Shown here piece by piece: positions 1 to 33,054 of a stretch of DNA of 34,499 nucleotides. The DNA comes from a virus (Duplodnaviria; Heunggongvirae; Uroviricota; Caudoviricetes): the IMG/VR virus record IMGVR_UViG_648276647_000016, positions 1-34,499 of that record; one strand, 5' to 3'. The notes beneath the pieces were generated by a model. It did not search any database. It saw only the letters and a program-made list of their open reading frames with translations, and was not told where the DNA came from. The number at the start of each line of letters is the position of its first letter. Position 1 is the stretch's first letter. A program made the position numbers and the translations under genes.

Positions 1-300
1 TGCGCGCTTACTGACACTGGTGTAATCCGGGCAGCGCAACGGAACATTCATCAGTGTAAAAATGGAATCAATAAAACCCTGTGCAGCCCGCAGGGTCAGC
101 CTGAACACGCGTTTAATGACCAGAACGGTGGTGATGGCGAGATCAGAATAGCGCTGAGGTCTTCCCCGTGATGAAGGCGTTGCCGACTCATACCAGGCCT
201 GAATAGCTTCATCGTCCAGCCAGAAAGTTATGGAGCCACGGTTGATGAGGGCTTTGTTGTAGGTGGACCAGTTGGTGATTTTGAACTTTTGCTTTGCCAC
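1..300 (-). CDS. IS903-family transposase, N-terminal 100 codons (3' part outside window)
   Basis: Hand translation of the reverse complement from a GTG at 298-300; open to the window edge. Not in the ORF track because it is truncated. Confidence 0.8.
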   Translation of the reverse strand, partial: MAKQKFKITNWSTYNKALINRGSITFWLDDEAIQAWYESATPSSRGRPQRYSDLAITTVLVIKRVFRLTLRAAQGFIDSIFTLMNVPLRCPDYTSVSKRA

Positions 301-377
301 GGAATGGTCTGCGTTGTCGGGAAGATGCGTGATCTGATCCTTCAACTCAGCAAAAGTTCGATTTATTCAACAAAGCC
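1..377 (-). mobile_element. IS903-family (IS5 family) insertion sequence, partial; outer terminal inverted repeat at 359-377
   Basis: Minus strand of 359-377 reads GGCTTTGTTGAATAAATCG, which I recall as the IS903 terminal IR. Adjacent ORF translates to VAKQKFKITNWSTYNKALINRGSITFWLDDEAIQAWYESATPSSRGRPQRY, matching my memory of the IS903/IS102 transposase N-terminus. Element continues beyond the window start. Confidence 0.85.
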
Positions 378-816
378 CCTTCAAGTTTCTAATGTAGTTG
401 TTCAGCGCGTCATACCAGTCTGCGATATTCGAGGGCTTACGTAGCGCCAGCCTGAATAAACTACTTACCTGCTGTATGAGCATAGTCAGCTTATCAAACG
501 CATCCTCGTGCACCTCAGCAAAAAACTTACCCTGGTTTCTAAGATCTGTTTCCTGAGTAACCGGCAGTTCTCGCGATATGGAAATCTGATAACCATTAGC
601 CAGTGCTTTCGACAGAATTACATTGCCGCCGTTATACCCTCCCGCACCAGTGACTGTGTAATCAGTATCAAGAGCCAGCACAGTGATATTCTCGTCAGGG
701 TCAATCACCTGCACTACTAGATCAGATTTATTGAAAACCCTAAAGGTATAAGGGAATGATGTCGTAACGCCGTTACCGGTGTATTCGTTGTGGTCAACTT
801 CGGTTGAGACCGTCAT
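367..816 (-). pseudogene. Tail fibre / tailspike N-terminal virion-attachment domain, truncated by the IS903-family insertion
   Basis: 149-aa ORF starting MTVSTEVDHNEYTGNGVTTSFPYTF, resembling phage tail-fibre N-termini. Only codons 1-146 (378-816) are phage DNA; the last three codons and the TGA stop (367-369) lie inside the IS inverted repeat. Confidence 0.6.
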
Positions 817-920
817 GTTAAATCTCCAGATAGTCGCAGCACCCGTTGCGCCGCATATCCGGTCATTCTATTACCTGAAAAACCATATATGGATAGAAAA
901 CCCATAAATACGAACAGATA

Positions 921-935
921 TTACCTTTCAGGTGA
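921..935. promoter_or_regulatory. Operator-like palindrome TTACC-N5-GGTgA (one mismatch)
   Basis: TTACCTTTCAGGTGA; flanking sequence (cataaatacgaacagatattacc) resembles the -10/operator part of the PL-like promoter at 28395-28438. Confidence 0.4.
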
Positions 936-972
936 TTTGCAAAACGTACTGGATAGCAAACAAATTATTTGA

Positions 973-992
973 TACTGTATAAATATACAGTT
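973..992 (+). promoter_or_regulatory. LexA (SOS) box
   Basis: taCTGTATAAATATACAGtt: perfect CTGT-N8-ACAG palindrome with AT-rich centre, about 20 bp upstream of the ATG at 1012 and its GGAGAAG Shine-Dalgarno (999-1005). Confidence 0.8.
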
Positions 993-1011
993 ATTACATG
1001 GAGAAGATAAG

Positions 1012-1269
1012 ATGCAGCAGTATCACTATCCACTGGAAGACGGATTTACCGAAAGGATTCACACGCCGGGAGGCGTCAGGTCACTGGTGGAGGGATCGCA
1101 CTTGATGAAATTACTCCGGGATCTCGATAAGGATGGATTTAATGTCGATGGCCCACTTGCCGAACTGACTGCACTGATTAACTACGTCACCAGCTCGCAG
1201 ATGTCTATGCAGGATCTGCAAACACATCTCGACTATTGTGCCGAACAATTACTAAAACAAACCAGATAA
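1012..1269 (+). CDS. Small antirepressor-like protein (paralogue of the C-terminal domain of the Bro-N antirepressor), LexA-box controlled
   Basis: 85-aa ORF with good RBS. Aligns by eye to residues ~150-220 of the 1585-2280 product (IHTPGGVRSLVEGSHLMKLL..DGxxVxGxxAELT..QDLQTH vs IHSPSGVLGLTENSLLMNLL..DGHDVSGAAAELT..RDIQTH). Confidence 0.6.
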   Translation: MQQYHYPLEDGFTERIHTPGGVRSLVEGSHLMKLLRDLDKDGFNVDGPLAELTALINYVTSSQMSMQDLQTHLDYCAEQLLKQTR

Positions 1270-1272
1270 GGT

Positions 1273-1315
1273 TTGAAATTACCAAGTGGAGTGCTTATAT
1301 TTACCTTTGCGGTAA
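1273..1315 (+). promoter_or_regulatory. Sigma70-like promoter (TTGAAA-N17-TATATT) with operator palindrome TTACCTTTGCGGTAA (1301-1315) over the predicted start
   Basis: Read directly from sequence; operator matches the motif found in the immunity region. Confidence 0.5.
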
Positions 1316-1407
1316 ATTTACATCGCACTCCTCTTGTGCCATAGTAATCGGGCACTGGCAAAATCCAGTGCCGGGATTGGCGTCCCGGATTACTAAAAGG
1401 CGCATTC

Positions 1408-1427
1408 ACCGCGCAAGCGGTTTTTTT
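1408..1427 (+). terminator. Rho-independent terminator (ACCGC-GCAA-GCGGT + T7)
   Basis: 5-bp GC stem with GNRA loop followed by TTTTTTT, about 110 nt downstream of the promoter at 1273-1300. Confidence 0.55.
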
Positions 1428-1584
1428 ATGCGTATAGCACGGCCACATTCGTATTATGGTGGGCTGTGTGGGGGCACCGAAAGGTGCGCCGGGTCCTTTT
1501 AGCCGGTTACGCCAACCCTGCACAGTTCACCACCAACCGATTGGCGTCGGTAGTGGTGATTAACCAGACTAAAAGGTAACCACT

Positions 1585-2280
1585 ATGACAGCTACAAAAA
1601 GCACGTCCATTTTTTCTTTCGAATCCCAAGCCGATATACGAGTAATCGTCATTAATGGTGAGCCATGGTTTATCGCTTCAGATGTTTGTCGGGCTATAGG
1701 CATAGCAAACCATCGAGATGCTGTTCGAAAACTTGATGATGATGAGAAGGGCGTCGCTTCAACCGACACCCCTGGCGGTGAGCAAGAATCGATCATCATC
1801 TCCGAGTCAGGCCTCTACACACTGATCCTCCGCTGCCGCGATGCGGTGACACCAGGCACTATCCCCTACCGCTTTCGTAAATGGGTTACAGGTGAGGTTC
1901 TTCCTCAGATCCGCCGCACCGGAAGCTACATTAAAAACTCGCTCCCGCAGGAAGAACGCATAAAGATGGTTGCCGACCAGGTTGCCAACGCCACGGCGTC
2001 AGCAGTAATGCAGGCGATGAAGATAGAGAACAAAACCTACAGCGCCCCGCTGAAGCCAGGATACCGCAGTCTGATTCACTCGCCGTCTGGTGTTCTCGGC
2101 CTGACGGAGAACTCACTGCTGATGAATCTGCTGAACCAGTTACAGGACGACGGGCACGACGTATCGGGCGCGGCGGCGGAACTGACCACCATGTTCTGCT
2201 ACATTGTCGGTGTGAGCAAATGCCTGCGTGATATCCAGACGCACGCGGAGTACATCAACGACAAGGCAGGGTTCTTCTGA
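1585..2280 (+). CDS. Antirepressor, Bro-N domain family
   Basis: 231 aa; N-terminal region (EPWFIASDVCRAIGIAN ... ESGLYTLILRCR) matches my recollection of the Bro-N/antirepressor fold. RBS AAAAGG 8 bp upstream. Confidence 0.7.
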   Translation: MTATKSTSIFSFESQADIRVIVINGEPWFIASDVCRAIGIANHRDAVRKLDDDEKGVASTDTPGGEQESIIISESGLYTLILRCRDAVTPGTIPYRFRKWVTGEVLPQIRRTGSYIKNSLPQEERIKMVADQVANATASAVMQAMKIENKTYSAPLKPGYRSLIHSPSGVLGLTENSLLMNLLNQLQDDGHDVSGAAAELTTMFCYIVGVSKCLRDIQTHAEYINDKAGFF

Positions 2281-2295
2281 CGGGCGGCGGTGGCA

Positions 2296-2326
2296 TTCGT
2301 TAAAAACAAGGCCGCGAAAGCGGCCT
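2296..2326 (-). terminator. Rho-independent terminator for the minus-strand late operon (hairpin AGGCCGC-GAAA-GCGGCCT, then TGTTTTTAA on the minus strand)
   Basis: 7-bp GC stem at 2309-2326 followed by a U-rich tract on the minus strand, directly downstream of the lipoprotein gene; convergent with the antirepressor gene. Confidence 0.6.
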
Positions 2327-2341
2327 GTGACATGTCTCGAC

Positions 2342-2755
2342 TTATAAAGATGACTGATATTTTACAACTCTGTTCATGGCATCTTTTTTCACCGAGCTGA
2401 TATCAGTTCTTATTTTGGCTTCGTCATTACTGCTTATCATGCTATTAATTTTTTGCACTGACATGCCGTTTCTTTCAGCCATTGCACATACAGCAGCATC
2501 GTATGAAGAACTCGCTGCGATGGATATCACCTTGTTACACTCAAACACAGCACCTTCAGCAATATCAGATGCCGATGAGGCTGGCTTGGTATAAGTCTTG
2601 ACGTAGTGATCAATACAACTATCCTTCGCCGTCTTGGCAAGAGAAAAATCCATTTTAACTTTGTCGCAATATGCCTTATCAACACCGTCATAAACATCAT
2701 AGGATGTCGAGCAAGCGGATATCAAAAATACCGATAACAGCAATAATTCCTTCAT
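2342..2755 (-). CDS. Lipoprotein, AT-rich moron (candidate superinfection-exclusion protein)
   Basis: 137 aa; N-terminus MKELLLLSVFLISAC has a hydrophobic core and lipobox ending in Cys. Gene is visibly AT-richer than its neighbours. Confidence 0.6.
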   Translation of the reverse strand: MKELLLLSVFLISACSTSYDVYDGVDKAYCDKVKMDFSLAKTAKDSCIDHYVKTYTKPASSASDIAEGAVFECNKVISIAASSSYDAAVCAMAERNGMSVQKINSMISSNDEAKIRTDISSVKKDAMNRVVKYQSSL

Positions 2756-2764
2756 TGTTGTTCC

Positions 2765-5239
2765 TTATTGCGGAGTGACATCCTGAGGTCGCCACCAGTA
2801 TGTCTGGTTAAACTCTTTCTTTGAACGTTGCTCCATTTTACGCAAATAGCCTGGTGAAAAATACTCCTGCATCTGGTTAAAGATCATGTGATCGAGAGCC
2901 GCCTTCAAGTACCAGAGATTCGCACCAGGCATCAAACCTTTCCCCAGCTTAACCAGATCACCACCAGTCTGCTCATTCTTCCCTTCCACAGCATTTAACG
3001 GTATGCCCTGAGCAATCTTCACTACGTCATCAACCAGACCAACTACCGGGCCAAGCATCGACGCTAGTGCGCCGCTCCCGTACCTGGTGTGGTCAGAGAA
3101 AAGAAAATCACCGTACAACCCTGCCCCACCACCTTTTAAAAATGCATTTATCCAGAATTTAACCATGTTGTCACCGGTCATTTCTTTTGGATTTCTCCCA
3201 TTAATAAGATCAGTAATCTGCATGGAAAGAGCACCAAGCATGGTTGTGCTTGCTAAAAACGTTGCTATATATGCTGCACGCCCACCAGCAGACGGCATCC
3301 CCATAGCTCTATGCCAGTGACGCATAACTACCGAGATAGGGAACGATTTAAACAGGAAAACACTTCTCGTTAATTCACCTTTCCATGTTCCACGCTGAAT
3401 ACCAGAACCGGTTATCAGTTGCTCACGTGCTCCCGGTGTAATAACAGCCATATCAACTTCTTCAGTTACGGCACCGAGCAGTTTACGCATTGCCTCAAAT
3501 TTCACGCGTTCAGGCTCACCAAGATGTTTAACTGCTGAATCAGGGATACGCATAATGCTTTCCGGTGTCAGCATCGTATTATTACCGTTCCCCCAGTCCT
3601 CCTGTTGCGCCAGCTTCCATACGCTCCAGTCTGTGTCAGTAATCCCTTTGCTTTTCAGGATACGAAAATCAGAGTCATCGAGGCTACGAAGGTCTGGCGT
3701 CCGTGACACTACTTCTCCCAGGCTTCCCATCATGGTTACGCCATAGGCGCGCTTGTGCGCATCTGACCATGCTGTAAGCCCACTGGCACGCATTACGGCC
3801 GTTGCCGCCCAACGAGACACTGACGGCCCCATATTATCCATCGCCCAGCGGTTAACGCTGCCAAGTAGAGATTCCATCGCCAGACCAGCGCGGCGCGCCC
3901 GCACAAGTTCTGTACGGTTCGTTGGGTCCATAGCTTCAAGCTGGTTGCGGAATAACTGGTTCATTGGAAGGTTGGTAACCTTCGCCGACAGATACATGGT
4001 TCCAAGATCAGAGAACGATGACAGCAACGCGGATCCGAGTCTGCTGGCAACCAGCCAGTTGCGGATATTGTCAGACCATCGCGCGATGTGCGGATTCGCT
4101 ACAGGCTGTGTCTTTCCGGAAATAAAGTTGTACAGATTCTCTGTGTTGTTCGCCAGCCGCTCGACTTTACCGGTTTTACTCGGGTTAGCTGTTGCCGTTT
4201 CTGCCTTCACCTGATCAAGAAGAGAGCGGAAAACATGATCGGGGTTTGGGCCATATGTTTCCACCAGTGCAATATCTTTACTGATACCTTCCAGGTGACC
4301 GACCATGATTTCCCATAGAGAGCGATCGCCATAAAGTTGCTGATATTGCAGATAGGAATCTGCATCTTTGAAATGTATCTGTCGTGATGCATTACCACGG
4401 TTAGCACGTGCGCCGGAAATTCGCATTCCGGTATCAGTAAGCTTATTCAGCCCACCAGTAGCGATCGTGTTATAAGCCTCTCCAAGAAATGCAGACAACT
4501 CAGCATCGTTCATCAGTTGTCCATCGGCTCGGGTATAATATTTGCGATCCAGCTTACCTATAACATCGCTAACCCACTTATCCTTTGATACCGCCCCAAC
4601 CTTTTCCATAGAATGATGTTGAGGGATCCCCCAGTTTTCGAGATAGCCAATGTCCCCACCAGCATCATTAAACCGGCGGCGCAGTAGCTCTGTCACTTCT
4701 CTCCACGCCTTAGCACCTTTTCTTGCTTTAGCATTGCCAGTATTTTGCCCCCGCATTTCATATACCAGGTCACGTACGCCCGCTTCATCTTCAAACAGAC
4801 CAAAAAAGCGAGGATCAACTGCTTCGAATGCCCCCTGCAATTGACTCAATGCATAATCACGGGTGGCTTTTGTTCTGGATTCAACAGAGAGGAAATTCGA
4901 TTTACCGTCTGCATTAAAAGCAATAGTACGGTTAAGAGCACCGAGTTTCCCATCAGCCCCTTGATAGCTATTGATAAATTTATCCAATCTCTGACGTGCG
5001 GCTATAGTGAGGGCCACACGACGTTTATTTAATGCCGCTTCTCGCTGTAATTCTTCAGATGCCAATTGTGCTGCTCGATATAGCCGCTCTGATTCGGAAA
5101 GTTGTCGCCACGACATCGGGTCATCACGAGCAATGGAGCGCATATTTCGATAAATGCGGTCTTCAATGTTCTGTATTTCTCGCGCCGTTAACGTGCGCTG
5201 CGCCGCCTGCTGGACCGCTTGTATACATTCCTGTCTCAT
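2765..5239 (-). CDS. Internal virion / ejection protein, large (T7 gp16-like by position and size)
   Basis: 824-aa ORF, last large gene of the late operon after two other internal-protein genes; assignment is by synteny and size, not a recalled sequence match. Confidence 0.5.
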   Translation of the reverse strand: MRQECIQAVQQAAQRTLTAREIQNIEDRIYRNMRSIARDDPMSWRQLSESERLYRAAQLASEELQREAALNKRRVALTIAARQRLDKFINSYQGADGKLGALNRTIAFNADGKSNFLSVESRTKATRDYALSQLQGAFEAVDPRFFGLFEDEAGVRDLVYEMRGQNTGNAKARKGAKAWREVTELLRRRFNDAGGDIGYLENWGIPQHHSMEKVGAVSKDKWVSDVIGKLDRKYYTRADGQLMNDAELSAFLGEAYNTIATGGLNKLTDTGMRISGARANRGNASRQIHFKDADSYLQYQQLYGDRSLWEIMVGHLEGISKDIALVETYGPNPDHVFRSLLDQVKAETATANPSKTGKVERLANNTENLYNFISGKTQPVANPHIARWSDNIRNWLVASRLGSALLSSFSDLGTMYLSAKVTNLPMNQLFRNQLEAMDPTNRTELVRARRAGLAMESLLGSVNRWAMDNMGPSVSRWAATAVMRASGLTAWSDAHKRAYGVTMMGSLGEVVSRTPDLRSLDDSDFRILKSKGITDTDWSVWKLAQQEDWGNGNNTMLTPESIMRIPDSAVKHLGEPERVKFEAMRKLLGAVTEEVDMAVITPGAREQLITGSGIQRGTWKGELTRSVFLFKSFPISVVMRHWHRAMGMPSAGGRAAYIATFLASTTMLGALSMQITDLINGRNPKEMTGDNMVKFWINAFLKGGGAGLYGDFLFSDHTRYGSGALASMLGPVVGLVDDVVKIAQGIPLNAVEGKNEQTGGDLVKLGKGLMPGANLWYLKAALDHMIFNQMQEYFSPGYLRKMEQRSKKEFNQTYWWRPQDVTPQ

Positions 5240-5244
5240 TTAAT

Positions 5245-7047
5245 TTAACCTCTCAAGAAACACGCCACAGCGACATCAAACAGGCTGGAATCCTGTATTG
5301 CCTGCTCACTTTCCCTGTTCGCTTCATCCAGTACTTCACGCGCACTGCGCGATTGTGGATTACCATCATCATCCAGCACGGTGATTATCATGTCAGGTGA
5401 TTCAAGCAGCGAGTCTTCAGCTATGCGCAGATCAATATCTCCTGCCTGATCTGACATCATTTTTTGTTCTGCCTGTTGCAATATTTTATCAGGCTCAAAA
5501 GGAGCTACTTCGTCTGGCGTCCTGACCTCTGCTGTTTTATAGAATGAAACAGCCTGAGCATTAAGTTCACTTTCTGCCTGCTGTCTCCGAGCCAGTTCTG
5601 CTCGAGCTTCAAAAAACTGACCGCCAGGCTCGTGCGGTGCCAACGCGTTACGGGAAAATTCCAGGCGTTCTTGTGCCTGCCGGATTCGTTGATCAATATC
5701 GCGAAGTCTGGCCTGTTTATCTGATCGAGCACGAGACAAAGCTTTACCGCTACCGGTTGGCTCTTCTGCAAGAATTTGTGCACGCTGTTCAGTGAGATTT
5801 TCAATAATTCGTTGGCTATTAGCGATTTCAGACTGGTAAACCTGTCTATCTCCACGCGGCAAAAGCTGCGCGGCCTGTTCTTCAAGCAACCGATTTTCTA
5901 TAGCGCGCGCCGTTACTCCATCATCTACAGATGACAGAGCCTCATTAACTGCCTGAGACAGCAGACTCTTGCGCCCAGGAATTTCACTGAAAGATGCAGA
6001 CTCAACAATGCTCGCAACGTCTACAGGTCTCCCCTGGCTAACATCAGACATGGCTTTTCGCAGAGCCTGAATGTGCGAATTACGCGAAAGCACGTTGATC
6101 GGAACGCCGGGAGCAATATCAATTTCAGCATGATGAGCGGCATTCGCCGCCAGTGCAGCATCGATATCAACTGGTGAAAAATTTGGTGCGCTTGTAGGCT
6201 CGCCGCGAGAGTTAATAAATCTGCCGACACCACCAAACGCCACCCCAAGAACAGCATCAATAGCAATTGCCTGTCGATCCAACACATCATACTGGTTAGC
6301 CATTTCGCTATAGCCACCATCACGAAGCGTTTTTGCAGTAAGCACACGCTGTGCCATACCGAACGCAATATTTGTACCTGCGGCATAGGCAATATCTGGC
6401 GTTGCACGTACTGCTGTTGCTGCGGCGCGTCGCACTGAACTTTCACCCGTCCGCGCAAGCTGAGCCGCCACACCTTCCGCCAGCGCACCGCCAGCACGTA
6501 ACCCGAGGCTCATTGGGATCAGTGTTCCGGCACCAGCAGTAATACCCTGCACTAATCCCGCTTCCTGCGCCGTCCTGAAATCAACACCCTGTGCTGTCAG
6601 CCGTTCAAACTCAGAAAAACCCTGTAGAGAAGTTACTGCCGCAGCACCTCCGACCGGACCACCGAGCGTTGTACCGACAACAGCCTGCCCGCCCATATCG
6701 AACAACCCATAAAGGACCTGCCCGGCGCTTCCGGTTGTCGCGGCATCAGGCGTCAGCCGCTTAACCTGCTGCTCTGCTAGTTTTCTCTGCTCAGCAATGT
6801 ATGAAACTGAAGTGTCATTGAGCGAGGTGTTTTCGTTAACAAACTGAGCAATCGGGGATACGATTTTATCCATCCCTGCCCATAGCAACTGATCTGGCTT
6901 TGCCACCAGCCCGGAGTACAAACCAGACAATGCCGCGCCTACAGCATTGTCGAAAAAACCAACATCGCTGTTAAAGCCAGCTGGATTTGATGCTGCTTCG
7001 TCAAGCTGCTGATTCTGGTTTACTGGATTAAGGCCAAAGTAACTCAT
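5245..7047 (-). CDS. Internal virion / ejection protein (gp15-like by position)
   Basis: 600-aa ORF, Gly/Ala-rich N-terminal half and coiled-coil-like C-terminal half; 4-nt overlap with the upstream gene. Confidence 0.5.
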   Translation of the reverse strand: MSYFGLNPVNQNQQLDEAASNPAGFNSDVGFFDNAVGAALSGLYSGLVAKPDQLLWAGMDKIVSPIAQFVNENTSLNDTSVSYIAEQRKLAEQQVKRLTPDAATTGSAGQVLYGLFDMGGQAVVGTTLGGPVGGAAAVTSLQGFSEFERLTAQGVDFRTAQEAGLVQGITAGAGTLIPMSLGLRAGGALAEGVAAQLARTGESSVRRAAATAVRATPDIAYAAGTNIAFGMAQRVLTAKTLRDGGYSEMANQYDVLDRQAIAIDAVLGVAFGGVGRFINSRGEPTSAPNFSPVDIDAALAANAAHHAEIDIAPGVPINVLSRNSHIQALRKAMSDVSQGRPVDVASIVESASFSEIPGRKSLLSQAVNEALSSVDDGVTARAIENRLLEEQAAQLLPRGDRQVYQSEIANSQRIIENLTEQRAQILAEEPTGSGKALSRARSDKQARLRDIDQRIRQAQERLEFSRNALAPHEPGGQFFEARAELARRQQAESELNAQAVSFYKTAEVRTPDEVAPFEPDKILQQAEQKMMSDQAGDIDLRIAEDSLLESPDMIITVLDDDGNPQSRSAREVLDEANRESEQAIQDSSLFDVAVACFLRG

Positions 7048-9557
7048 TGCGGAATATCTCCGGAGAATCTCTGACGTTTCTGTGTCAGATTAAGAACAAC
7101 GGGAGAACCATCATCTTTCAGCAGATAACCAGTACCAAGTTTCACCAGGTACTGACTATCGCCGTAACTTTGCAAACCATACTGACCAGGCGGTGTTTTT
7201 ATCCCGGAGCCGACTACTTGTTCATTCCAAGCCTGATTAATCTGCTTATCGAATTGCTCTGCAGACATTCCCCACGGCAAAAGGACATTCCCCATTCCGT
7301 TATAGTCATGCACGCCACCTGTAGCTACGTTAACAGCCTGTTTCCAGACATCATTGTCAATTTCGCCTGATACCACGCCTTTTTTCGCCATCACACCAGC
7401 GTAATAATCCTTTGCGATCTCGTATGCCATTGATGCCCCCTGAGCGTCACCAGCAAATGCATCCTTCACCATGTCAGAAAACTCAAGGCGAAGATCAGCA
7501 TCTTTAGGCATCGGAATACCTTTCGCATCATCAGTACCTTTACGAGCCGCCGCGCCAGCAAGAATTGTCTGCGCAGCGGTTTCAGGAGACACGGAAACAT
7601 CCGGATTAAACCAGTTTTTTTCTGCCAAAATACCACCAGGCTTATCCATCAGTATCCCGGCAACGGCAGCAGATGGAGCGTTGGCACTGATCTGCTGTAG
7701 TGCTGACATATACACCTGCCCACCACCAGTGCTCTGCCTGATGGTATCGAGATATGCTGCCTGTTGGGAAACTGGAGCATCACGAAAGAAAACACCGATC
7801 TGATTGGCCTCGTCTTTGGAAAAGAACGTCAGTGGAGTGCCATATGACTTAGCAAGATCACTGACCTGAGCGGCACGCAAGGCAACGCTCTGTCCAAAGT
7901 TATCCTTATTGCTCATGTCGATAGGCTTTGCCTGTCCGGAGGCAAGAGAGAACTGCACAGGATCCGACTGCCGCTGCTTTATCACCTGATTTGCAGCCGA
8001 AACAACGTTGTCATAAAGAGCTGCGCGTGCCGCATACCCCTCCCCTGTCTCACCAGTATCCGGGCGTAATTGCTCAACATATGCTGTAATGCTGCTTGTC
8101 GGCATGTTGCGGAAAGAGCCTATATACTGTCCGGCGATCTGTGTATTTCTGAACTCGGTATATCGCAGGTTTCCTTCTCTGACGCCATAAGCTGCAATAA
8201 AATCATCCTCACCAGGTGGGTTAGGGAATTCAACGCCACGCATATACGCAGCCGTCGCATCGCGAACCTGGCTGTCAATCATCGTTTTATATTCAGCCTG
8301 CTGCTGCCGACGCAGTTGATCCGCCTGTCGCATAAAACTTGCCTGCGCCTCAGGAGATGCCGCATCGAATGCTGCATTACCGGTATAGCGTTTGGTGTTG
8401 GTTGGAATTGTTGATAAACCAAGTGCTGCACTGACACCAGCAGTTAACTGCTGATCACTGTATGGCTGGTTACCGTTCTCATGATGGATAATGGCTGCAC
8501 AAAGCGCCTTCAGGGTATCAGGATTAGATGCATCGAGAGGATCATCAGCAGAAACGCCAAGTTGTTCGCACACTGCTTTGATATACGACATAGTATCATT
8601 TTTATCAGTAGGCGGTGCCCAGCGATTAATTATCTCGCTGACGGTATCAATACCCTGCCTCTGATACGACATCAGGTTTCGCCCTAATGCACGAATCCCG
8701 TGTTCAGGTGTTTCGAATTTAGCAAATCGACCATCATCACCGGTCTGGCCTACCCACGGATTAGTTTTGCTGTATTCGAGATTTCCTGGGTTATTGTTGC
8801 GTATGCCACGGGCACGCTCGGAAGAGTCACTATCTGCTACAGCACGGCGAGCTCCAGCAGCAGTATCACTTAACTCGCCATTACTTTGGATGAATGCGGT
8901 CGCATTGTTTGCCGACCACTGGGACAATGCGGCATCAGCAACCTTCTCTTTAAACTCGATTTTCTTGGCCTGGATTTGCTCGTCGCTCCAGCCATGCGCA
9001 ATGCCGTAATCCTCAATTTGCTGGAAAGTTTGCTTATTAGCCAATACGTATGCGGCATTGTCGCCATACAATGCTGCGGCATTTTTACCATTATTCAGCA
9101 GCGTCGCCTGAAACTGACCTTCTTCGTAGGCATTAATTTGCCCTATCTCGTGCCGCCCGGCCTGCGTAGTGAACTGAATGCGCTGCTGCTGTGCCTGCTG
9201 CATGAAAGCATTACGGGCCTGTTCATCCGGCAGCGACATAGCCAGTTGCTCGATCTGGGCATCAAACTGCTGCGTATACTCCTGACCTTTTCCAATAGCA
9301 TTTTTCCCTTTCAGGTTAAGCAAACCTGTTTCAGGGTTATTCAGCAGATCGCTGCTTATCTGGCTTAAGCTAAGAGAAGCATCCTGAGCCATAGCAACAT
9401 TCGCACGCTGTTTTGCCTGCGCAATAATACCTGCATATTGCTCTGCAACATCGCCAAGTACATCACCGACATTTGGTGTCTGAAACGATGAGAATCCCTG
9501 CGTCGAAATCCCTCTGCTTTGAACCTGACGGCCCGATGTTGTTGGTACAACTGGCAT
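7044..9557 (-). CDS. Internal virion protein with a putative cell-wall-degrading domain
   Basis: 837-aa ORF; contains GIRNNNPGNLEYSKTNPWVGQ...FAKFETPEHGIRALGRNL, a motif I associate with virion-associated muralytic domains of podovirus internal proteins (from memory, unverified). Confidence 0.5.
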   Translation of the reverse strand: MPVVPTTSGRQVQSRGISTQGFSSFQTPNVGDVLGDVAEQYAGIIAQAKQRANVAMAQDASLSLSQISSDLLNNPETGLLNLKGKNAIGKGQEYTQQFDAQIEQLAMSLPDEQARNAFMQQAQQQRIQFTTQAGRHEIGQINAYEEGQFQATLLNNGKNAAALYGDNAAYVLANKQTFQQIEDYGIAHGWSDEQIQAKKIEFKEKVADAALSQWSANNATAFIQSNGELSDTAAGARRAVADSDSSERARGIRNNNPGNLEYSKTNPWVGQTGDDGRFAKFETPEHGIRALGRNLMSYQRQGIDTVSEIINRWAPPTDKNDTMSYIKAVCEQLGVSADDPLDASNPDTLKALCAAIIHHENGNQPYSDQQLTAGVSAALGLSTIPTNTKRYTGNAAFDAASPEAQASFMRQADQLRRQQQAEYKTMIDSQVRDATAAYMRGVEFPNPPGEDDFIAAYGVREGNLRYTEFRNTQIAGQYIGSFRNMPTSSITAYVEQLRPDTGETGEGYAARAALYDNVVSAANQVIKQRQSDPVQFSLASGQAKPIDMSNKDNFGQSVALRAAQVSDLAKSYGTPLTFFSKDEANQIGVFFRDAPVSQQAAYLDTIRQSTGGGQVYMSALQQISANAPSAAVAGILMDKPGGILAEKNWFNPDVSVSPETAAQTILAGAAARKGTDDAKGIPMPKDADLRLEFSDMVKDAFAGDAQGASMAYEIAKDYYAGVMAKKGVVSGEIDNDVWKQAVNVATGGVHDYNGMGNVLLPWGMSAEQFDKQINQAWNEQVVGSGIKTPPGQYGLQSYGDSQYLVKLGTGYLLKDDGSPVVLNLTQKRQRFSGDIPQ

Positions 9558-9569
9558 CTTATTATCCCC

Positions 9570-10109
9570 TTATCGACCGGTTGGAGTGCCAACAGCAGCA
9601 GAAATCGGCGCAGCCTTCTGAGAGAACGGGCTCCACGTTCCTCCGCCCATCTGGTATGCACCGTATGCTTTTAGTGGTGCCGTTAACAAAGTGCTGGTCA
9701 TCGATGATTTAGCAGCCGACTGAGCAGCAGCCCCCTGTGCCCGAGCATTCATTCCCTGAACCTGATACCCATATGCCTCACGCTGAGCGTTATTCACTGT
9801 CGTTAACGCATCAAGAGTGCCGAACTGAGCATTATCCGCAAAAACGTCAAGAGCTGTTCCGCTACTTAATTCCGCACCGGTAGCCCCCATAGTGGCCGCC
9901 GCAGTGCCTGAGCGTTGACGCATTTCACGACGACGCTGATCCGCTTCAATATTCCCACGATTGATTGAATCCTGTGCCTGAGCTTCAGCAATTTCAGCAT
10001 TCCGATCAGCTATGGCTGACTGGTATTTTGCCTGCTTGCTCTGGCTGTACATTGACGCGGCTGTGGATGCCACTGTGACGGCAACCAAAGCGATGGCTGG
10101 GTTACACAT
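9570..10109 (-). CDS. Putative internal virion protein (hydrophobic N-terminus, Ala/Gln-rich)
   Basis: 179-aa ORF; start overlaps the stop of the upstream gene; position between tail-tube and ejection genes. Confidence 0.4.
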   Translation of the reverse strand: MCNPAIALVAVTVASTAASMYSQSKQAKYQSAIADRNAEIAEAQAQDSINRGNIEADQRRREMRQRSGTAAATMGATGAELSSGTALDVFADNAQFGTLDALTTVNNAQREAYGYQVQGMNARAQGAAAQSAAKSSMTSTLLTAPLKAYGAYQMGGGTWSPFSQKAAPISAAVGTPTGR

Positions 10110-10573
10110 TATTTTCTCTCCATGTGAAATCTGTGGAAATTAAGACCAAGAGCACCATAAGGCGCGGCTTCTTCAAGCCTGAATCCAAGCCAGTGCAGCC
10201 ATGCTTTGGCAACATGGTTTCGCTCGTCGACGTAGTTTTCCAGGCGCGGATAAACTGCCAGCATCTGCTGCAATACAGGGCGGCAGTGGCGCAGAAATGT
10301 CTTCTGATATTTTTCAATACGGCTGGTTCCGACCAGCCAGGGCGTACCATTGCCACCGATCATTGACGCCGGAGATACGCCAAACATGGTTACCAGTTCT
10401 CCGTTCGCAAATCCTGACCAGGCCATAGTCGCAGTACGCAGACCAACACGCAGCGCATCTTCGGTAGTCATCAGTGATACCGCATACAGTTCGTCAATAT
10501 CAGCCTGACGAACATCCGGCAAAATCATCTGAAGATGCTCTTCGGTTGCGGGAATAATTCGAACATCGATCAT
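10109..10573 (-). CDS. Hypothetical virion-module protein
   Basis: 154-aa ORF, start/stop overlaps with both neighbours in the late operon. Confidence 0.4.
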   Translation of the reverse strand: MIDVRIIPATEEHLQMILPDVRQADIDELYAVSLMTTEDALRVGLRTATMAWSGFANGELVTMFGVSPASMIGGNGTPWLVGTSRIEKYQKTFLRHCRPVLQQMLAVYPRLENYVDERNHVAKAWLHWLGFRLEEAAPYGALGLNFHRFHMERK

Positions 10574-13044
10574 CAGAATCCCCCAACAGTAAGGCGAGGA
10601 ATAACGGCAAGAACAGACAGCGGCAACGGATCAAGCTGACGGATTTTTACACGTCCATTTTTGCCCCAGTTACTGTCCAGTTTCACTTCTACTTTTCCGG
10701 TAGCGTCATCAACAGGATCATCGTAGAACTCGAATTCACGCTGTGGATATTCGTACCATTTACCGCCTAGCGTAGTCGCCCAGATGCCGCGACTAGCATT
10801 CACAACCAGAGTAACGGAGGGGATCACCTGTTTTTTGTCCAGCAGCGTTTCCTGTCCGTTAATGTTGATATCCAGTGTTTCGAATTCAGCAGTTATTGGC
10901 AGGCCGATGTGCACTACAGCCCCCGGAGATTCCAGTGTAACGGCACCTCCGGAAACCACTTTCTGTGGTTCCACGTTCGCATCAGAGAGAATGTTTACGG
11001 TCTGGCCTTCAAGATGAGACAGGCCTCCAAATGTCCGGCGCGCCATCTGCCAGTTCGTGGTGGCCACATTCCTGAGTGATGGCGGGACGTTCCTGTTAGC
11101 ACGAACCACTACAGCGGTATTGCTGGTTACAGAAATAATGTCGCAACGTAATTCTTTTGACACTTCATCGCCAGTATCAGGATCAGTTCCGGTATAAGGG
11201 AACTGTAGTTGCGCACCGACATCACTACTGGTGAAGTACGCACCACCAGAAACACTGATTGTATATTCCGCGCGGTAATCCCATTCACCAGAACCACCAG
11301 TGATGGTCATCGTTCTGTCAGACGTATTTCTTCCATCATAGCTAAGGCCAGAATCAACAAAGAAAGCGTCTTCATCGCTGGTAAATAAACGGCTGGACAG
11401 CCGCTCGATGTATCTCACTGTTTGCCCGTTAACGGTTCGGTTAACGACGAAATACACCGCATCTTCATTGCCTTCGCTGATACTGCACGTGCTTTCATAT
11501 TTTCCGGTACTGGACTGTGGTGCCCATGCAAAAACCTGTTGATCACGCAAATAGGTCATCACCAGTAATTTACCGTCATCACGAATGCAGAAGGCGCTGG
11601 AGTAAGGGACAATCGAGAAGCACCAGTCAACAATGCTGTGCTTCTGAAAAAGATGATTGGCAAGGATGGTCAGGTCGTTCCCCTGATAGCCATCAACATC
11701 GAATGAGTAGGCCAGATCACGGACAACACTGCCTTTCTCCTGGACGAACAGAGCAATATTCGCCACAGCAATTGGTGGGACGTTGCTTGAGCCATTTGAT
11801 CCCTGAGAGCTGAATGCAAATGATGATGGGGTTAACACTTTGTTCTGGTCACCGGTGATGACGTACTCACCTCCGGAAGTCAGTGCCACCAGCGAACCGA
11901 CATCAATCAGGTGGCGGATCTCATTAACCTGACGCCCGGCATAGGTGTAGATAATTCTGTCGTCATCCTGCGTAGGATTGCTTTTGCCAAAATCCTTATA
12001 ATCCCCAGTACGGCTGGCCCAGATAGTCTGAGGGAACGCTGTCGATGCGGCGAAGTAAAGACGTTGTTGATAATAAACAACAGTGCCAGGATAACCATTA
12101 ACACTGTTCCAGGCATATTTAGCCCATTTATAGCTGGCATTATCCTCGCCAACGACCTGCGAAGGGATATAGGAAATCACCTCAGCAGTTGCAGTAGTGC
12201 CATTTGCAGCAGTGATACGGGCAATGCCAAAACCACTGTGCAGATATTCCCACTCAATGCCAGTATCATCATCACCGGATCCGCCCCAGCCATCCCATGA
12301 TGTGCCTTCTGTATGCGAAGGGCGCAAAGTACCTGTTTTGCCTGCTGTAACGGCGCGATAGTAGTTACTGTCTGCACGGCGAATATCGCCAATCGACGTA
12401 CTCTTACTGGTTTCCCATACCGGCACTGAATCCACTGCAGGCTGTTCCAGATAGAACAATTTGCCTACCTGCTCCGCGCCAAAAATAGAGGCGCTTGCCG
12501 TTAACGTAATTGTCCCGGTGCTGGCGCTGGCATAAACCGTCACTGACTCATCAATATTGATATCTTCAAATGGCCCGTTCTTCGTTACCACATCAACCAG
12601 TTGCCAGTTGTCATGAGCATATCGGCGCAACTCTTTCGGCGGGTATGCCGGGTGAACCAGCGTAAGCACGTCGGCGCTTTGCGTGAATTTAATTCGGAAC
12701 AGATCGGCTTCAGTATATGGCGTGGCAATTTCATAAATAACATTGCTGCTGTTCAGCACCAACGCACCATCTTTGATAACGCGCATGTACTGGTGTCCGA
12801 ACTCCAGAGCATAGGTCTGAACCGTCGAGAACTGGAACGGGATCAGGCGGCATTTCCGATTTGGGTATTTGGCGGCACCGACAAAACGCGTACCAGGTCG
12901 ATTCTCAACGCCGCCATACTGCCGCACGATAAAGTTATCGCACTTGCGCAATGCCACCTGGTACTTCGCCATGTCGATACGACCGTACAACGACGGTCCA
13001 ATCTCACCACCGGCAAAGCTGGGCTGTATCCAACTGATAGCCAT
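10573..13044 (-). CDS. Tail tubular protein B-like (T7 gp12-like nozzle protein)
   Basis: 823 aa, size and position downstream of a gp11-like gene; weak N-terminal resemblance to gp12. Confidence 0.5.
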   Translation of the reverse strand: MAISWIQPSFAGGEIGPSLYGRIDMAKYQVALRKCDNFIVRQYGGVENRPGTRFVGAAKYPNRKCRLIPFQFSTVQTYALEFGHQYMRVIKDGALVLNSSNVIYEIATPYTEADLFRIKFTQSADVLTLVHPAYPPKELRRYAHDNWQLVDVVTKNGPFEDINIDESVTVYASASTGTITLTASASIFGAEQVGKLFYLEQPAVDSVPVWETSKSTSIGDIRRADSNYYRAVTAGKTGTLRPSHTEGTSWDGWGGSGDDDTGIEWEYLHSGFGIARITAANGTTATAEVISYIPSQVVGEDNASYKWAKYAWNSVNGYPGTVVYYQQRLYFAASTAFPQTIWASRTGDYKDFGKSNPTQDDDRIIYTYAGRQVNEIRHLIDVGSLVALTSGGEYVITGDQNKVLTPSSFAFSSQGSNGSSNVPPIAVANIALFVQEKGSVVRDLAYSFDVDGYQGNDLTILANHLFQKHSIVDWCFSIVPYSSAFCIRDDGKLLVMTYLRDQQVFAWAPQSSTGKYESTCSISEGNEDAVYFVVNRTVNGQTVRYIERLSSRLFTSDEDAFFVDSGLSYDGRNTSDRTMTITGGSGEWDYRAEYTISVSGGAYFTSSDVGAQLQFPYTGTDPDTGDEVSKELRCDIISVTSNTAVVVRANRNVPPSLRNVATTNWQMARRTFGGLSHLEGQTVNILSDANVEPQKVVSGGAVTLESPGAVVHIGLPITAEFETLDININGQETLLDKKQVIPSVTLVVNASRGIWATTLGGKWYEYPQREFEFYDDPVDDATGKVEVKLDSNWGKNGRVKIRQLDPLPLSVLAVIPRLTVGGF

Positions 13045-19189: not shown

Positions 19190-19266
19190 GTGGCATTAGC
19201 TCAGCTGGACAGAGCAACCGCCTTCTAAGCGGTTGGTCGCAGGTTCGAATCCTGCATGCCACGCCA
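19190..19266 (+). tRNA. tRNA-Arg (anticodon UCU)
   Basis: Hand-folded cloverleaf: acceptor GTGGCAT/ATGCCAC, D-stem GCTC/GAGC, anticodon stem ACCGC/GCGGT with loop CUUCUAA, T-arm GCAGG-TTCGAAT-CCTGC, discriminator G and encoded CCA. Confidence 0.85.
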
Positions 19267-22626: not shown

Positions 22627-22858
22627 TATTCACCTTTATCGCGAACACCTTTACCGGTTTATCACCGAAGTGCGGATGTGTGATTGTCTTGATTTCATAT
22701 CCGTCATACGGAACATCAATTCTGCGACTGAAATCGTCGCGCTTCGGATATCCCTTTGTGATAATCAGGCGGCCATTATGAGACGACAATAACTCAGTCC
22801 GCCTAGCGCCGATTATTCTGGCCGGTTTTGTAACCTGAGTGTCATTTACATGATCCAA
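22616..22858 (-). CDS. Hypothetical protein, possibly a 5'-truncated remnant at the IS21-family junction
   Basis: 80-aa ORF whose start lies within about 12 bp of the IstA start, so its N-terminal codons probably fall in the IS left end. Confidence 0.3.
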   Translation of the reverse strand: MDHVNDTQVTKPARIIGARRTELLSSHNGRLIITKGYPKRDDFSRRIDVPYDGYEIKTITHPHFGDKPVKVFAIKVNIDG

Positions 22859-22869
22859 CAGGAAATGGC

Positions 22870-24369
22870 GTGACGCTCAATACTTCTCAGGTCAGTTACT
22901 ATATGACTCAGCGTAAGAAAGGTATAACTCAGCATATCTCGGCCATGAAGGCTGGTATCTCAGTCCGTTCTGGTCGTCGGATCGAAAAAGGAGAGTGGGC
23001 AAAAAACAGTGTTCGGCACTGGCGCACACGCAAAGATCCTCTGGAAGCTGTGTGGGACAGCATGCTTGTTCCTCTGTTGAAAGAGAGGCCGGCTCTGACA
23101 CCAACAACTCTGCTGGAGATGCTACAGGATAAATATCCCGGCCAGTATCCCAACAGCCTTCGAAGAACAATGCAACGGCGAGTTCGCGAATGGAAGCTAC
23201 AGTATGGTGCAGAGCAGGAGGTCATGTTCCGCCAGCGACATCAGCCCGGTCTGCGAGGTCTGTCGGACTTTACTGAACTGAAAGGTGTAGTTGTCACCAT
23301 CGCCGGTAAGTTGTTGGCGCATAAGTTGTATCACTTCCGTCTGGAATGGAGCCACTGGAGCTGGATGCGGGTTGTGCTGGGTGGTGAGAGCTTCTCTGCT
23401 CTGGCTGAAGGTCTGCAGGAAGCCCTCGGACAACTGGGCGGAGTGCCGGTAGAACATAAAACGGACAGCCTGAGGGCAGCATGGAAACAACAGGGCGAAG
23501 ATGGACGCCGCGAGCTGACTGAGCGTTATGCTGCTCTCTGTCAGCACTACGGAATGCAGGGCGTACACAATAATGCTGGTCGGGGCCACGAAAATGGCTC
23601 GGTTGAAAGTGCCCACGGACATCTGAAAAGGCGTATCTGTCAGGCGTTGATACTGCGGGGCAGTAACGACTTCAGCACCATAGAAGAATATCAGGCCTTC
23701 ATCACTCAGCAGGTTATGCGGCACAACCGTAACAATCAGGATCTGGTCAAGGAAGAACGTCTTCATCTGAAACCGCTGCCGCTTCGTCGCAGTGCTGACT
23801 ATGATGAGCTGACTGTGAGGGTTAGCCGCAGCAGTACCATCAATGTGAAGCACGTCGTCTACAGCGTACCTTCCCGGCTTGTAGGTCAACTGTTACGGGT
23901 CCGGTTATGGGACGATCGTCTGAGCTGTTATGTTGGCAGCAGCGAGGTCATGAGCTGCCCTCGTGTCAGACCAGAAAAAGGGAAGACGCGGGCCCGTCGT
24001 ATCGACTTCCGACATGTGATCGACAGTCTGGCAAAAAAGCCCGGTGCGTTCTGCCATGCAACGCTGAGAAATGACATCCTGCCAGACGATGAATGGCGGA
24101 GACTGTGGCGTCGCTTATGTAATCATCTGGAACCCGACATGGCAGGAAGGCTGATGGTACATGCCCTGAAACTGGCTGCAGGATACGACGATATCTCAGT
24201 CGTGGCAAAAGGTATGGAGCAGATGCTGAATACCCCGGGAAACGTGGATCTGCACCGGCTGATGCGCTTCCTGGGTATAAAGGAAAAGGCGTTGCCGGTA
24301 GTCAATGTGAAACAGCATAACCTGAGCAGTTATGAGCAACTACTGCGTGGCAAGGGAGGTTCGCAGTGA
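22870..24369 (+). CDS. istA: IS21-family transposase IstA
   Basis: 499 aa with N-terminal HTH-like region and central DDE-type domain; GTG start with AGGAAA Shine-Dalgarno (alternative ATG at 22903); stop overlaps the istB start. Confidence 0.7.
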   Translation: MTLNTSQVSYYMTQRKKGITQHISAMKAGISVRSGRRIEKGEWAKNSVRHWRTRKDPLEAVWDSMLVPLLKERPALTPTTLLEMLQDKYPGQYPNSLRRTMQRRVREWKLQYGAEQEVMFRQRHQPGLRGLSDFTELKGVVVTIAGKLLAHKLYHFRLEWSHWSWMRVVLGGESFSALAEGLQEALGQLGGVPVEHKTDSLRAAWKQQGEDGRRELTERYAALCQHYGMQGVHNNAGRGHENGSVESAHGHLKRRICQALILRGSNDFSTIEEYQAFITQQVMRHNRNNQDLVKEERLHLKPLPLRRSADYDELTVRVSRSSTINVKHVVYSVPSRLVGQLLRVRLWDDRLSCYVGSSEVMSCPRVRPEKGKTRARRIDFRHVIDSLAKKPGAFCHATLRNDILPDDEWRRLWRRLCNHLEPDMAGRLMVHALKLAAGYDDISVVAKGMEQMLNTPGNVDLHRLMRFLGIKEKALPVVNVKQHNLSSYEQLLRGKGGSQ

Positions 24370-24689
24370 GCAATATCCATCACCTTGAACGCAGCCTGCG
24401 TAAACTACGCCTGACACGAGTTGGAGCTGAATGGCACGCTCTGGAAAAACGAGCGCTGGCAGAAGGCTGGACACCATCGCGCTATCTTCTGACGCTATGC
24501 AATGAAGAACTCCTGTGGCGCGAGAGTGAAAAACTGCGTCGTTATAAAAAGGAGGCCCGGTTGCCAGTTGCCAAAACGCTAAGCGAATACGACTTCAGTC
24601 AGGTGCCGGAACTGAATGGAGCTCAGTTCCGGCAACTCTGTGAAACGACAGACTGGGTTGATGCTGGAGAAAACGTTCTGCTGTTCGGG
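24366..24689 (+). pseudogene. istB: IS21-family helper ATPase IstB, N-terminal fragment
   Basis: MSNIHHLERSLRKLRL...DWVDAGENVLLFG matches the IstB N-terminus up to the Walker A position, where the expected GPSGVGKTH is replaced by unrelated sequence. Confidence 0.65.
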
Positions 24690-24847
24690 GCCAGCGCATT
24701 AGCACGCACCAGTTGCACTTCCAGTTGCGTTGCCAAATCGCTGATCAGCTTTGCCACACTGCGCATATCAACGGCACCACATTCAGCTTTCAGTTCCGAA
24801 GCCATCTCATGCCCGGCGGCAACTAACCCTTTGATATTACTTTCCAT
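24690..24847 (-). pseudogene. N-terminal fragment (~52 codons) of a phage early-right gene, truncated at the IS21-family junction
   Basis: MESNIKGLVAAGHEMASELKAECGAVDMRSVAKLISDLATQLEVQLVRANA reads as protein-like; beyond ~24690 the frame is antisense to istB. Confidence 0.4.
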
Positions 24848-24908
24848 CTTTACCCTCGCTTATCCACATAACTTATTGATTACATTGATAACTAAAAAGA
24901 TCGTCGAT

Positions 24909-25253
24909 TCAGAACTCTTCGATATTCCAGCCACCATCTGCTTTCTTTGGTTTAACCGTTACCCCGATAATTCGGAACGGATACTGATCTGCGGCGACTT
25001 TGGTTTTCACCCTAGCGTCGTCGGTCCAGAAACCTTTCACTTCGTGCAGTTCCATCTCTCCTGTGGCGAGCATCACAGCGAAATCTGGCGTATAGAACGT
25101 GTTGTCAGCTAACCGCAGCTTGATACCCTCGAATCGATACCAGGCTATTTCCCCTGCGCGTTTACGCTGCTCAAGGTGCTGGCAATACGCAGATTCTGTT
25201 TTGTTCATCTGGCCTGTTTTGAGTCGACCAAGAGCCTGTATCTGTTTTCTCAT
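24909..25253 (-). CDS. DUF1064-like phage protein (putative PD-(D/E)XK-fold)
   Basis: 114 aa; pattern YRFEGIKLRLA...YTPDF...ELHEVKG recalled from DUF1064 proteins of lambdoid replication regions. Confidence 0.5.
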   Translation of the reverse strand: MRKQIQALGRLKTGQMNKTESAYCQHLEQRKRAGEIAWYRFEGIKLRLADNTFYTPDFAVMLATGEMELHEVKGFWTDDARVKTKVAADQYPFRIIGVTVKPKKADGGWNIEEF

Positions 25254-31014: not shown

Positions 31015-31314
31015 GTGAGAAAGTTAAGCCGACTTGAAAAATATCACATGAACAAGGTTTCAATGCGCCGTCCTTCAAAGGTTATCGCCGTTACTCCTGC
31101 GGCGATAGAGATCGAAAAACGCGCGATTGAAAGAGAGAAAAAAGGGCAATTCCGCATTGCCGCTCACCTTTGGCTTCAGTGTATGGATGTTGCTTCTGGT
31201 GATGTTGAACGTGCAAGGATCGCGGTTCGCAGGGACCAATGTATCACAAAAGGTAACGGCCTTCGCCGTGGCGACTATAGCGGTATAGGATGTTGCGGGG
31301 TGGTTTATGAATAA
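31015..31314 (+). CDS. PerC-like transcriptional regulator (tentative)
   Basis: 99 aa; GQFRIAAHLWLQCMD...ERARIAVRRDQC resembles the PerC/Pch G-W-R-AA-WL core as I remember it; start uncertain (GTG 31015 or internal ATG). Confidence 0.4.
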   Translation: MRKLSRLEKYHMNKVSMRRPSKVIAVTPAAIEIEKRAIEREKKGQFRIAAHLWLQCMDVASGDVERARIAVRRDQCITKGNGLRRGDYSGIGCCGVVYE

Positions 31315-32410: not shown

Positions 32411-33054
32411 AAAAATACACGCTAATATATGCAGATCCACCCTGGGTATACCGGGACAAAGCCGCAGATGGTAATCGCGGCGCTGGTTTTAAATATCCGG
32501 TTATGAGTGTGCTGGATATCTGCCGCCTTCCTGTGTGGGATTTGTCCGATGAAAACTGTCTGTTGGCCATGTGGTGGGTGCCAACACAACCACTCGAAGC
32601 ACTAAAAGTTGTTGAAGCCTGGGGATTCCGTCTGATGACCATGAAGGGCTTCACGTGGATAAAATGTGGTAGTCGACAACCAGATAAACTAGTTATGGGT
32701 ATGGGACACATGACTCGCGCCAATAGTGAAGATTGCCTGTTTGCGGTAAAGGGAAAACTACCTCCGCGCATTAATGCAGGTATCGTTCAGTCATTTACCG
32801 CACCGCGGCTTGAGCATTCAAGAAAACCAGATGTCGTTCGTGAAAAACTTGTGCAATTGTTAGGCGATGTTTCTCGCATTGAACTGTTCGCCCGCCAGTC
32901 GTCTCATGGCTTCGATGTTTGGGGTAATCAGTGCGAAGACCCGGCAGTGCAACTACACCCTGGATACGCGTTGGATATTGGCGGATTAACAAATGCATTC
33001 AGCAATGCTCCGCTGTCACCAACAGACAACCAGGGGCGGGAGCGTGCAGCATGA
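32407..33054 (+). CDS. MT-A70-family DNA N6-adenine methyltransferase
   Basis: Starts MKKYTLIYADPPW (DPPW catalytic motif) with further conserved stretch HSRKP; start overlaps the DGQHR stop (ATGA). Track start 32281 is an upstream extension. Confidence 0.7.
   Translation: MKKYTLIYADPPWVYRDKAADGNRGAGFKYPVMSVLDICRLPVWDLSDENCLLAMWWVPTQPLEALKVVEAWGFRLMTMKGFTWIKCGSRQPDKLVMGMGHMTRANSEDCLFAVKGKLPPRINAGIVQSFTAPRLEHSRKPDVVREKLVQLLGDVSRIELFARQSSHGFDVWGNQCEDPAVQLHPGYALDIGGLTNAFSNAPLSPTDNQGRERAA

Follow-up and report, generated by a model that had tools for sequence, protein, structure and literature searches.

Introduction

The tailspikes of the Uetakeviruses, podoviruses such as phiV10, epsilon15, TL-2011b and PAS61, have a total length of about 650-1080 aa, and their receptor-binding domain lies C-terminal to an anchor that comprises the first 205 aa in phiV10 (PMC10408124). 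Among insertion sequences (ISs), IS903 has been shown experimentally to give rise commonly to adjacent deletions, and deletions beside ISs carry no target-site duplications; missing duplications are also known to result from IS-IS recombination and from break-associated insertion (PMC11708052).

Here we consider a locus where these two subjects meet, the left end of a 34,499-nt prophage sequence (IMG/VR record IMGVR_UViG_648276647_000016), which is referred to as the window. An initial annotation had described there a tail-fibre gene truncated by the insertion of an IS. The truncation stands, but the encoded protein is not a fibre but the tailspike of a podovirus (Uetakevirus), and in place of a simple insertion the likely event is an IS-associated deletion. 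We consider it highly probable that a single IS903B-like element has replaced a colinear block of the late region in a phiV10/epsilon15-like prophage of Escherichia coli M605, located beside yfgI, with an adjacent deletion as the most likely route. The locus resembles the IS-adjacent deletions described before (PMC11708052) in having one IS between two colinear, non-duplicated flanks with the DNA between them lost, and differs from them in that the event is deduced from the end state of a natural isolate, without an ancestral intermediate.

Results

The IS903B-like element at the left end of the window

Nucleotide identity to other IS copies and matches to transposase models place the IRL-proximal end of an IS903B-like element of the IS5 family, probably about 1057 bp long, at positions 1-377 of the window, on the minus strand. 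Its terminal inverted repeat IRL, GGCTTTGTTGAATAAATCG, lies at 359-377 (minus strand) and is identical to the IRL of IS903B (PMC10569121). A search tolerating up to 3 mismatches, for which 0.02 matches are expected by chance, found this sequence once in the window, with 0 mismatches. The comparison with IS903B was made with its published 50-nt ends (PMC10569121): reading inward from 377, the initial 50 nt agree with the printed IRL (50/50 nt), and the 50 nt on the IRR side, taken from the M605 scaffold described below, are those of the printed IRR (50/50 nt). The 18-bp inverted repeats of the IS903 group, GGCTTTGTTGAATAAATC(G/A), are present at both ends, IRL at window 359-377 and IRR at 11650-11667 of the scaffold locus, which we call L002.

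The nearest relatives of window 1-377 are IS copies on E. coli ETEC plasmids, with 99.5% identity. A complete 1057-bp copy in E. albertii pEA36_1 (L001), which we used as a control, is 98.9% identical to the same segment; its terminal inverted repeats measure 18 bp, and it lies between perfect 9-bp duplicates, GTAGAGTGG. Other plasmid copies are numerous, mostly from Klebsiella, in the 90-99% identity bands; PGAP gives close copies no isoform name, labelling them 'IS5 family transposase' or 'transposase'. When window 1-345 is translated on the minus strand, the product matches the IS5-family DDE transposase model PF13737 (DDE_Tnp_1_5; 1.7e-27, 96.5 bits against a cut-off of 28.1). It also matches NF033579, where its score of 110 bits falls short of the 140 set for full-length proteins, as the fragment has only 115 aa. 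This N-terminal part of the transposase has the orientation of the tailspike gene and is read leftwards, past the window edge, and the C-terminal piece past the scaffold gap carries PF01609. By the sequence criteria tested, namely the ends and the transposase, the element fits the IS903 group of the IS5 family. The exact repeat, the 50-nt IS903B ends and the IS5 transposase models thus bear out the family assignment made in the initial annotation, and the inverted-repeat match is real, not spurious. What sets the M605 copy apart from IS903 and IS903B is that it has no target-site duplication and that 205 nt in its middle, as estimated by alignment to the complete copy, are unsequenced.

The truncated tailspike gene

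From position 378 onward the DNA is that of a phiV10/epsilon15-type (Uetakevirus) prophage, with 90-92% identity to phages PAS61, TL-2011b and phiV10, and 96-97% identity over 11.6 kb to many E. coli prophages. The truncated tailspike ORF at 367-816 (minus strand), delimited by homology and by the junction bases, specifies 149 aa, that is, 146 phage residues followed by Gly-Leu-Cys, and ends with a TGA stop at 369-367. Its product in E. coli M605 is EGI15160.1, annotated as 'conserved hypothetical protein'. The ribosome-binding region at 817-830 (minus strand), with GGAG 8 nt upstream of the ATG, reads as intact.

PHROG, PDB and tblastn comparisons assign the phage-encoded codons 1-146 (379-816, minus strand) to the N-terminal anchor (particle-binding) domain of a phiV10/epsilon15-type tailspike. 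In the PHROG comparison, residues 1-146 fall on positions 1-146 of tail fibre/tailspike profiles 593-1084 positions long (best phrog_1640, E = 2e-106), and they also align to residues 1-146 of five intact tailspikes of 700, 707, 743, 837 and 991 aa; over these 146 residues the identity to intact prophage tailspikes is 86-91%. tblastn with the five intact tailspikes likewise matched the ORF over residues 1-146, with the alignment of the VG38-53E1 spike extending to residue 172 through a spurious run into the IS. A Pfam search of the stub returned no family. Residues 1-128 match domain 1 of the Klebsiella phage depolymerase Dpo31/Dpo36 (PDB 28lx, 8ck1; E = 7e-27), which belongs to another phage and host and retains its depolymerase domains; the match supports, at the level of sequence, the view of the stub as a separable N-terminal module.

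The initial annotation had placed the end of the phage-encoded sequence at position 378, with about 146 N-terminal residues retained and the last three codons and the stop supplied by the inverted repeat at 359-377, and these points hold in full. Codon-level comparison with the relatives matches through base 378, which is phage-derived and is the first base (G) of the lost Asp147 codon. The relatives all continue with GAC/GAT CC.. (Asp-Pro), whereas the window continues from this G with GGCTTTGTTGA, so that Gly-Leu-Cys-TGA is read from the IS end. In intact relatives ...NYIRNL(K/R) is followed by the conserved DPxxPQDAATKNYVD, and the divergence of the ORF from all of them falls exactly at the IS end, mid-motif, ahead of DPxxPQDAATKNYVD.

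The entire C-terminal receptor-binding/enzymatic part that distinguishes Uetakevirus tailspikes is absent from the M605 gene, the ORF ending at 146 + 3. With five full-length spikes as tblastn queries, no similarity past residue 146 was found in the whole window or in the 20-kb L002, and neither contains another tailspike or fibre sequence; a complete fibre gene elsewhere in the prophage, which would have spoken against the initial annotation, did not come to light. The position of the ORF is that of the tailspike gene in Uetakeviruses, between the ejection-protein/antirepressor block and the lysis cassette, and the gene order matches that of VE-T9, YDC107, 90-3040, VG38-53E1 and a metagenomic phage scaffold (L010). 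Flanking genes are also shared with the Uetakeviruses and the E. coli prophage relatives, among them the 85-aa gene, the BRO-N antirepressor gene and the genes for ejection proteins. On its sequence, the ORF is the remnant of a Uetakevirus tailspike and not a functional member of that family. We looked for the ancestral spike allele in the 90% cluster of the stub, whose members are truncated by contig ends or only about 90% similar, and none could be assigned.

The far side of the element

An exact-protein look-up of the 149-aa product led to scaffold GL883914.1 of assembly GCA_000176555.2 (E. coli M605) and to the Logan assembly of run SRR024152. Window 1-10816, reverse-complemented, gives exactly the sequence of L002 (the GL883914.1 locus) 1-10816, which is followed by one base and then by 376 N; the window thus begins one base short of a contig end, where a scaffold gap interrupts the IS. 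The Logan contig (L003), an independent assembly, reproduces the tailspike-IS junction and ends 28 nt into the IS. Past the gap the M605 scaffold resumes within the IS, which ends at L002 11667. The two sequenced portions of 378 and 474 nt cover IS nt 1-378 and 584-1057 in the same orientation and are in register with the complete 1057-bp copy, to which they are identical at 374/378 and 468/474 positions.

The DNA that follows IRR (AACCAGCAGCATCAATTC...) aligns base-for-base with a 134-codon gene of five relatives, holin_8 ('putative holin', PF16931 Phage_holin_8), starting at its nt 206 (codon 69). Consistent with this, tblastn of holin_8 against the M605 locus gives residues 69-133 only. Downstream of holin_8, M605 has a Phage_holin_3_7 holin gene, which lies only 200 bp from the IS in the scaffold, a GH19 endolysin gene, a DUF2514 gene, and then the host genes yfgI, yfgH, yfgG, pdeF, ppx and ppk. 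The initial annotation had left room for the remainder of the fibre beyond the IS. Since the far flank is codon 69 of holin_8, the rest of the tailspike is not there. The leftward extension that it had proposed as a check thus reached the other IS end without encountering further fibre coding sequence or a target-site duplication.

As for the duplication, the 9 bp abutting the IS at 378-386 read CCTTCAAGT on the plus strand and ACTTGAAGG in gene orientation, and a copy of them would be expected at the other end after a simple IS903 insertion. None is present: the flanks are ACTTGAAGG and, on the far side in L002, AACCAGCAG, whereas the control copy in pEA36_1 has its 9-mer twice. We take the missing duplication to characterise the event and not the element, and ascribe it to the IS being bounded by a colinear deletion.

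The main caveat is that the two IS halves are joined in a single scaffold (GL883914.1), through a repeat spanned by Ns. The gap was estimated at 376 N, not far from the 205 nt that the IS lacks, and this fits one IS copy and not two copies plus 3 kb. In the searched E. coli genomes, GTDB representatives and JGI metagenomes, neither a contig nor a complete genome was found to span the whole IS, and therefore the join relies on the M605 scaffold. Among complete E. coli genomes no record covered at least 80% of window 1-900 and no match spanned the far-side junction, and neither junction was found elsewhere in GTDB species-representative genomes or JGI metagenomes.

Gene order in intact relatives and the extent of the probable loss

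Four intact chromosomal relatives, which occupy the same site beside yfgI as the M605 prophage, have the order yfgI / DUF2514 / GH19 endolysin / holin / holin_8 / (acyltransferase) / tailspike of 700-991 aa / 85-aa gene, with the acyltransferase gene on the opposite strand in three of the four; for one of them, one of the records examined spans the early region only. The metagenomic phage scaffold, which was recovered with a DndB-like protein as the query and used for gene order only, is circularly permuted and shares this order, with an integrase gene in place of yfgI and no gene called between endolysin and holin_8. From the shared gene order it follows that the two IS flanks are colinear; they have the same orientation, and the distance between them in the relatives ranges from about 3.1 kb in YDC107 to about 4.0 kb in VG38-53E1. 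Judged against these genomes, M605 is likely to have lost about 550-850 codons of the receptor-binding/enzymatic domain of the tailspike, together with the 5' half of holin_8 and any counterpart of the acyltransferase cargo gene that the relatives usually have there.

Other features of the prophage

A second IS lies in the early region at window ~22770-25112. This ISEc10-like element of the IS21 family is 99% identical to ISEc10 copies and has an intact 499-aa istA, yet only 1927 nt of it are present, istB being cut at about codon 110 and running in frame into phage DNA (ORF 24366-25112). Beside it, phage homology restarts exactly at 24697, within the gene for a 185-aa hypothetical protein, and about 2.2 kb of small early genes of VG38-53E1 are absent. 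The site looks like another IS-associated deletion.

On the other side of the tailspike gene, Rfam models identify two RNAs at 1352-1427 and 1452-1537 (plus strand), the Hfq-binding sRNA isrK with 77.9 bits and a C4 antisense RNA with 77.7 bits, directly upstream of the BRO-N antirepressor-like gene at 1585-2280. Together they resemble an immunity module of the P1/P7 c4-ant type, placed immediately beside the tailspike gene. The 85-aa ORF at 1012-1269 (plus strand) is similar to the C-terminal part of the 231-aa BRO-N protein (1585-2280, plus strand); both match the antirepressor C-terminal region of phrog_1760 and have visibly common motifs, and the ORF may be a small paralogue of the antirepressor C-terminal domain. 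Between the antirepressor gene and that of an 824-aa virion protein lies a 137-aa ORF (2342-2755, minus strand) with a lipoprotein-type signal sequence (MKELLLLSVFLISAC...). It matches phrog_8691 (function unknown), other small genes stand in its place in VG38-53E1, and it is probably a moron.

Further to the right, a tRNA-Arg gene (anticodon TCT; 19190-19266, plus strand) is located between the portal and large terminase genes on the strand opposite to the structural genes. At 31307-33054 (plus strand), just upstream of the integrase gene, an MT-A70-type DNA methyltransferase comes after a 367-aa DndB-like protein with a DGQHR domain (TIGR03187, 192 bits); the pair, which also occurs in the metagenomic phage scaffold, may serve the prophage in DNA modification or anti-restriction. 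The tyrosine integrase ORF (33252-34499, minus strand) reaches the last base of the window. It has 415 aa compared with 416 aa in the metagenomic scaffold, which puts the integrase start no more than a codon or so from the window's end, and the attL side of the prophage therefore falls outside the window.

Discussion

How the structure arose

In the structure as we read it, the IRL end of the element (window 377) is joined to codon 146 of the tailspike gene and the IRR end, across the scaffold gap, to codon 69 of holin_8. We suggest that the IS would have inserted at one of these two present junctions, and that intramolecular, replicative-type transposition into nearby DNA would then have produced the adjacent deletion. 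Recombination between two directly oriented IS copies could have taken the place of this second step, and either route would leave one IS without a target-site duplication.

Several other readings need to be weighed against this one, and the one closest to it concerns the route only. The same end structure might have been produced by RecA-dependent recombination between two direct IS903B repeats that had entered the tailspike gene and holin_8 independently, or by capture of an IS at a double-strand break, with no transposase-mediated adjacent deletion involved. The missing duplication and the colinear flanks fit these routes equally well, and IS-IS recombination and break-associated insertion are both named as causes of missing duplications (PMC11708052). 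Recombination, however, demands that two copies inserted independently within 3-4 kb of each other, no sister genome carrying just one of the insertions came up among the complete E. coli genomes searched, and it is adjacent deletions that IS903 gives experimentally (PMC11708052); we give this family of routes perhaps one chance in a few. One sequence is compatible with adjacent deletion, two-copy recombination and IS capture at a break alike, and with more than one order of events. A further reading is a scaffolding artefact, in which two IS903B copies, one in the tailspike gene and one in holin_8, flank a segment of ~3 kb that resides on an unplaced contig, with two insertions and no deletion. 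The join does cross a repeat represented by Ns alone, and short-read and 454 assemblies break at each IS copy, as the Logan contig does shortly after entering the IS. Yet such an arrangement needs a gap of more than 4 kb against the estimated 376 nt, and the IS pieces share their orientation and are complementary in their coverage (nt 1-378 and 584-1057). We regard an artefact of this kind as improbable, and even if it were true, the tailspike gene and holin_8 would both still be interrupted.

The two remaining readings are rejected. Simple insertion, in which the tailspike gene is merely split, continues from codon 147 to its end directly on the other side of the IS and shows a 9-bp duplication, is the default for IS903, a maker of 9-bp duplications as seen in the control copy and in the direct repeat of IS903B (PMC10569121), and it is compatible with the window alone, which stops inside the IS. 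It is contradicted by the M605 scaffold: in GL883914.1 the far flank is codon 69 of holin_8 and not tailspike, the flanking 9-mers differ, and the 200 bp between the IS and the next holin gene are all the space there is. It is accordingly very unlikely. The faintest chance of all we assign to the idea that the inverted repeat is a coincidental match and that the ORF is short by nature, serving as an anchor-only adapter in a split receptor-binding arrangement of the kind known from SP6, K1-5 and CLB_P1. Although split anchor/receptor-binding-domain systems exist (PMC10408124), the 377 nt at the left end share 99.5% identity with IS copies over their whole length and carry coding sequence for an IS5 transposase, the repeat is exact, the divergence from the relatives falls precisely at the IS end before the conserved DPxxPQDAATKNYVD, and neither the window nor L002 contains a separate receptor-binding gene.

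Consequences for the prophage

Returning to replacement of a late-region block by a single IS as the favoured reading, we consider what it would mean for the prophage. Judging from the sequence, only an anchor stub of 146 + 3 aa could be made, and the retained tailspike piece of 146 aa is shorter than the 205-aa phiV10 anchor (PMC10408124). The receptor-binding part is C-terminal and lost, and therefore any particles would be without functional receptor-binding spikes and unable to adsorb, so that the loss of adsorption-competent particles suggested by the initial annotation appears reasonable. The rest of the structural module looks intact, with ORF lengths of 824, 600, 837, 179, 154, 823, 201 and 559 aa that equal those of the relatives. 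Lysis may also be impaired; one of two holin-like genes is halved, and the lysis cassette is now downstream of the IS. Taken together, the IS903B-like junction and the second, truncated IS would mark a defective, decaying prophage.

One could imagine that the stub has been kept for a purpose, either as a dominant-negative decoy docking on the tails of superinfecting or co-resident Uetakeviruses, or because the spikeless prophage is a satellite that borrows the spikes of a helper phage. The start codon and the ribosome-binding site of the stub are indeed intact. However, only one strain has the junction, and other random IS damage is seen in the prophage; both observations point to simple decay, and we consider such a role most unlikely.

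IS-driven erosion of prophages is routine, and the finding is known in kind and leaves the concepts unchanged. It does mean that EGI15160.1 is a tailspike remnant fused to an IS end and not a 'conserved hypothetical protein', and that prophage predictors should score the yfgI-adjacent prophage as defective. Surveys of tailspikes or serotype specificity that screen N-terminal anchors (as in PMC10408124) should likewise count it as defective. Beyond this, the locus is a clear case from nature of a deletion-bounded IS903-type element that lacks a target duplication.
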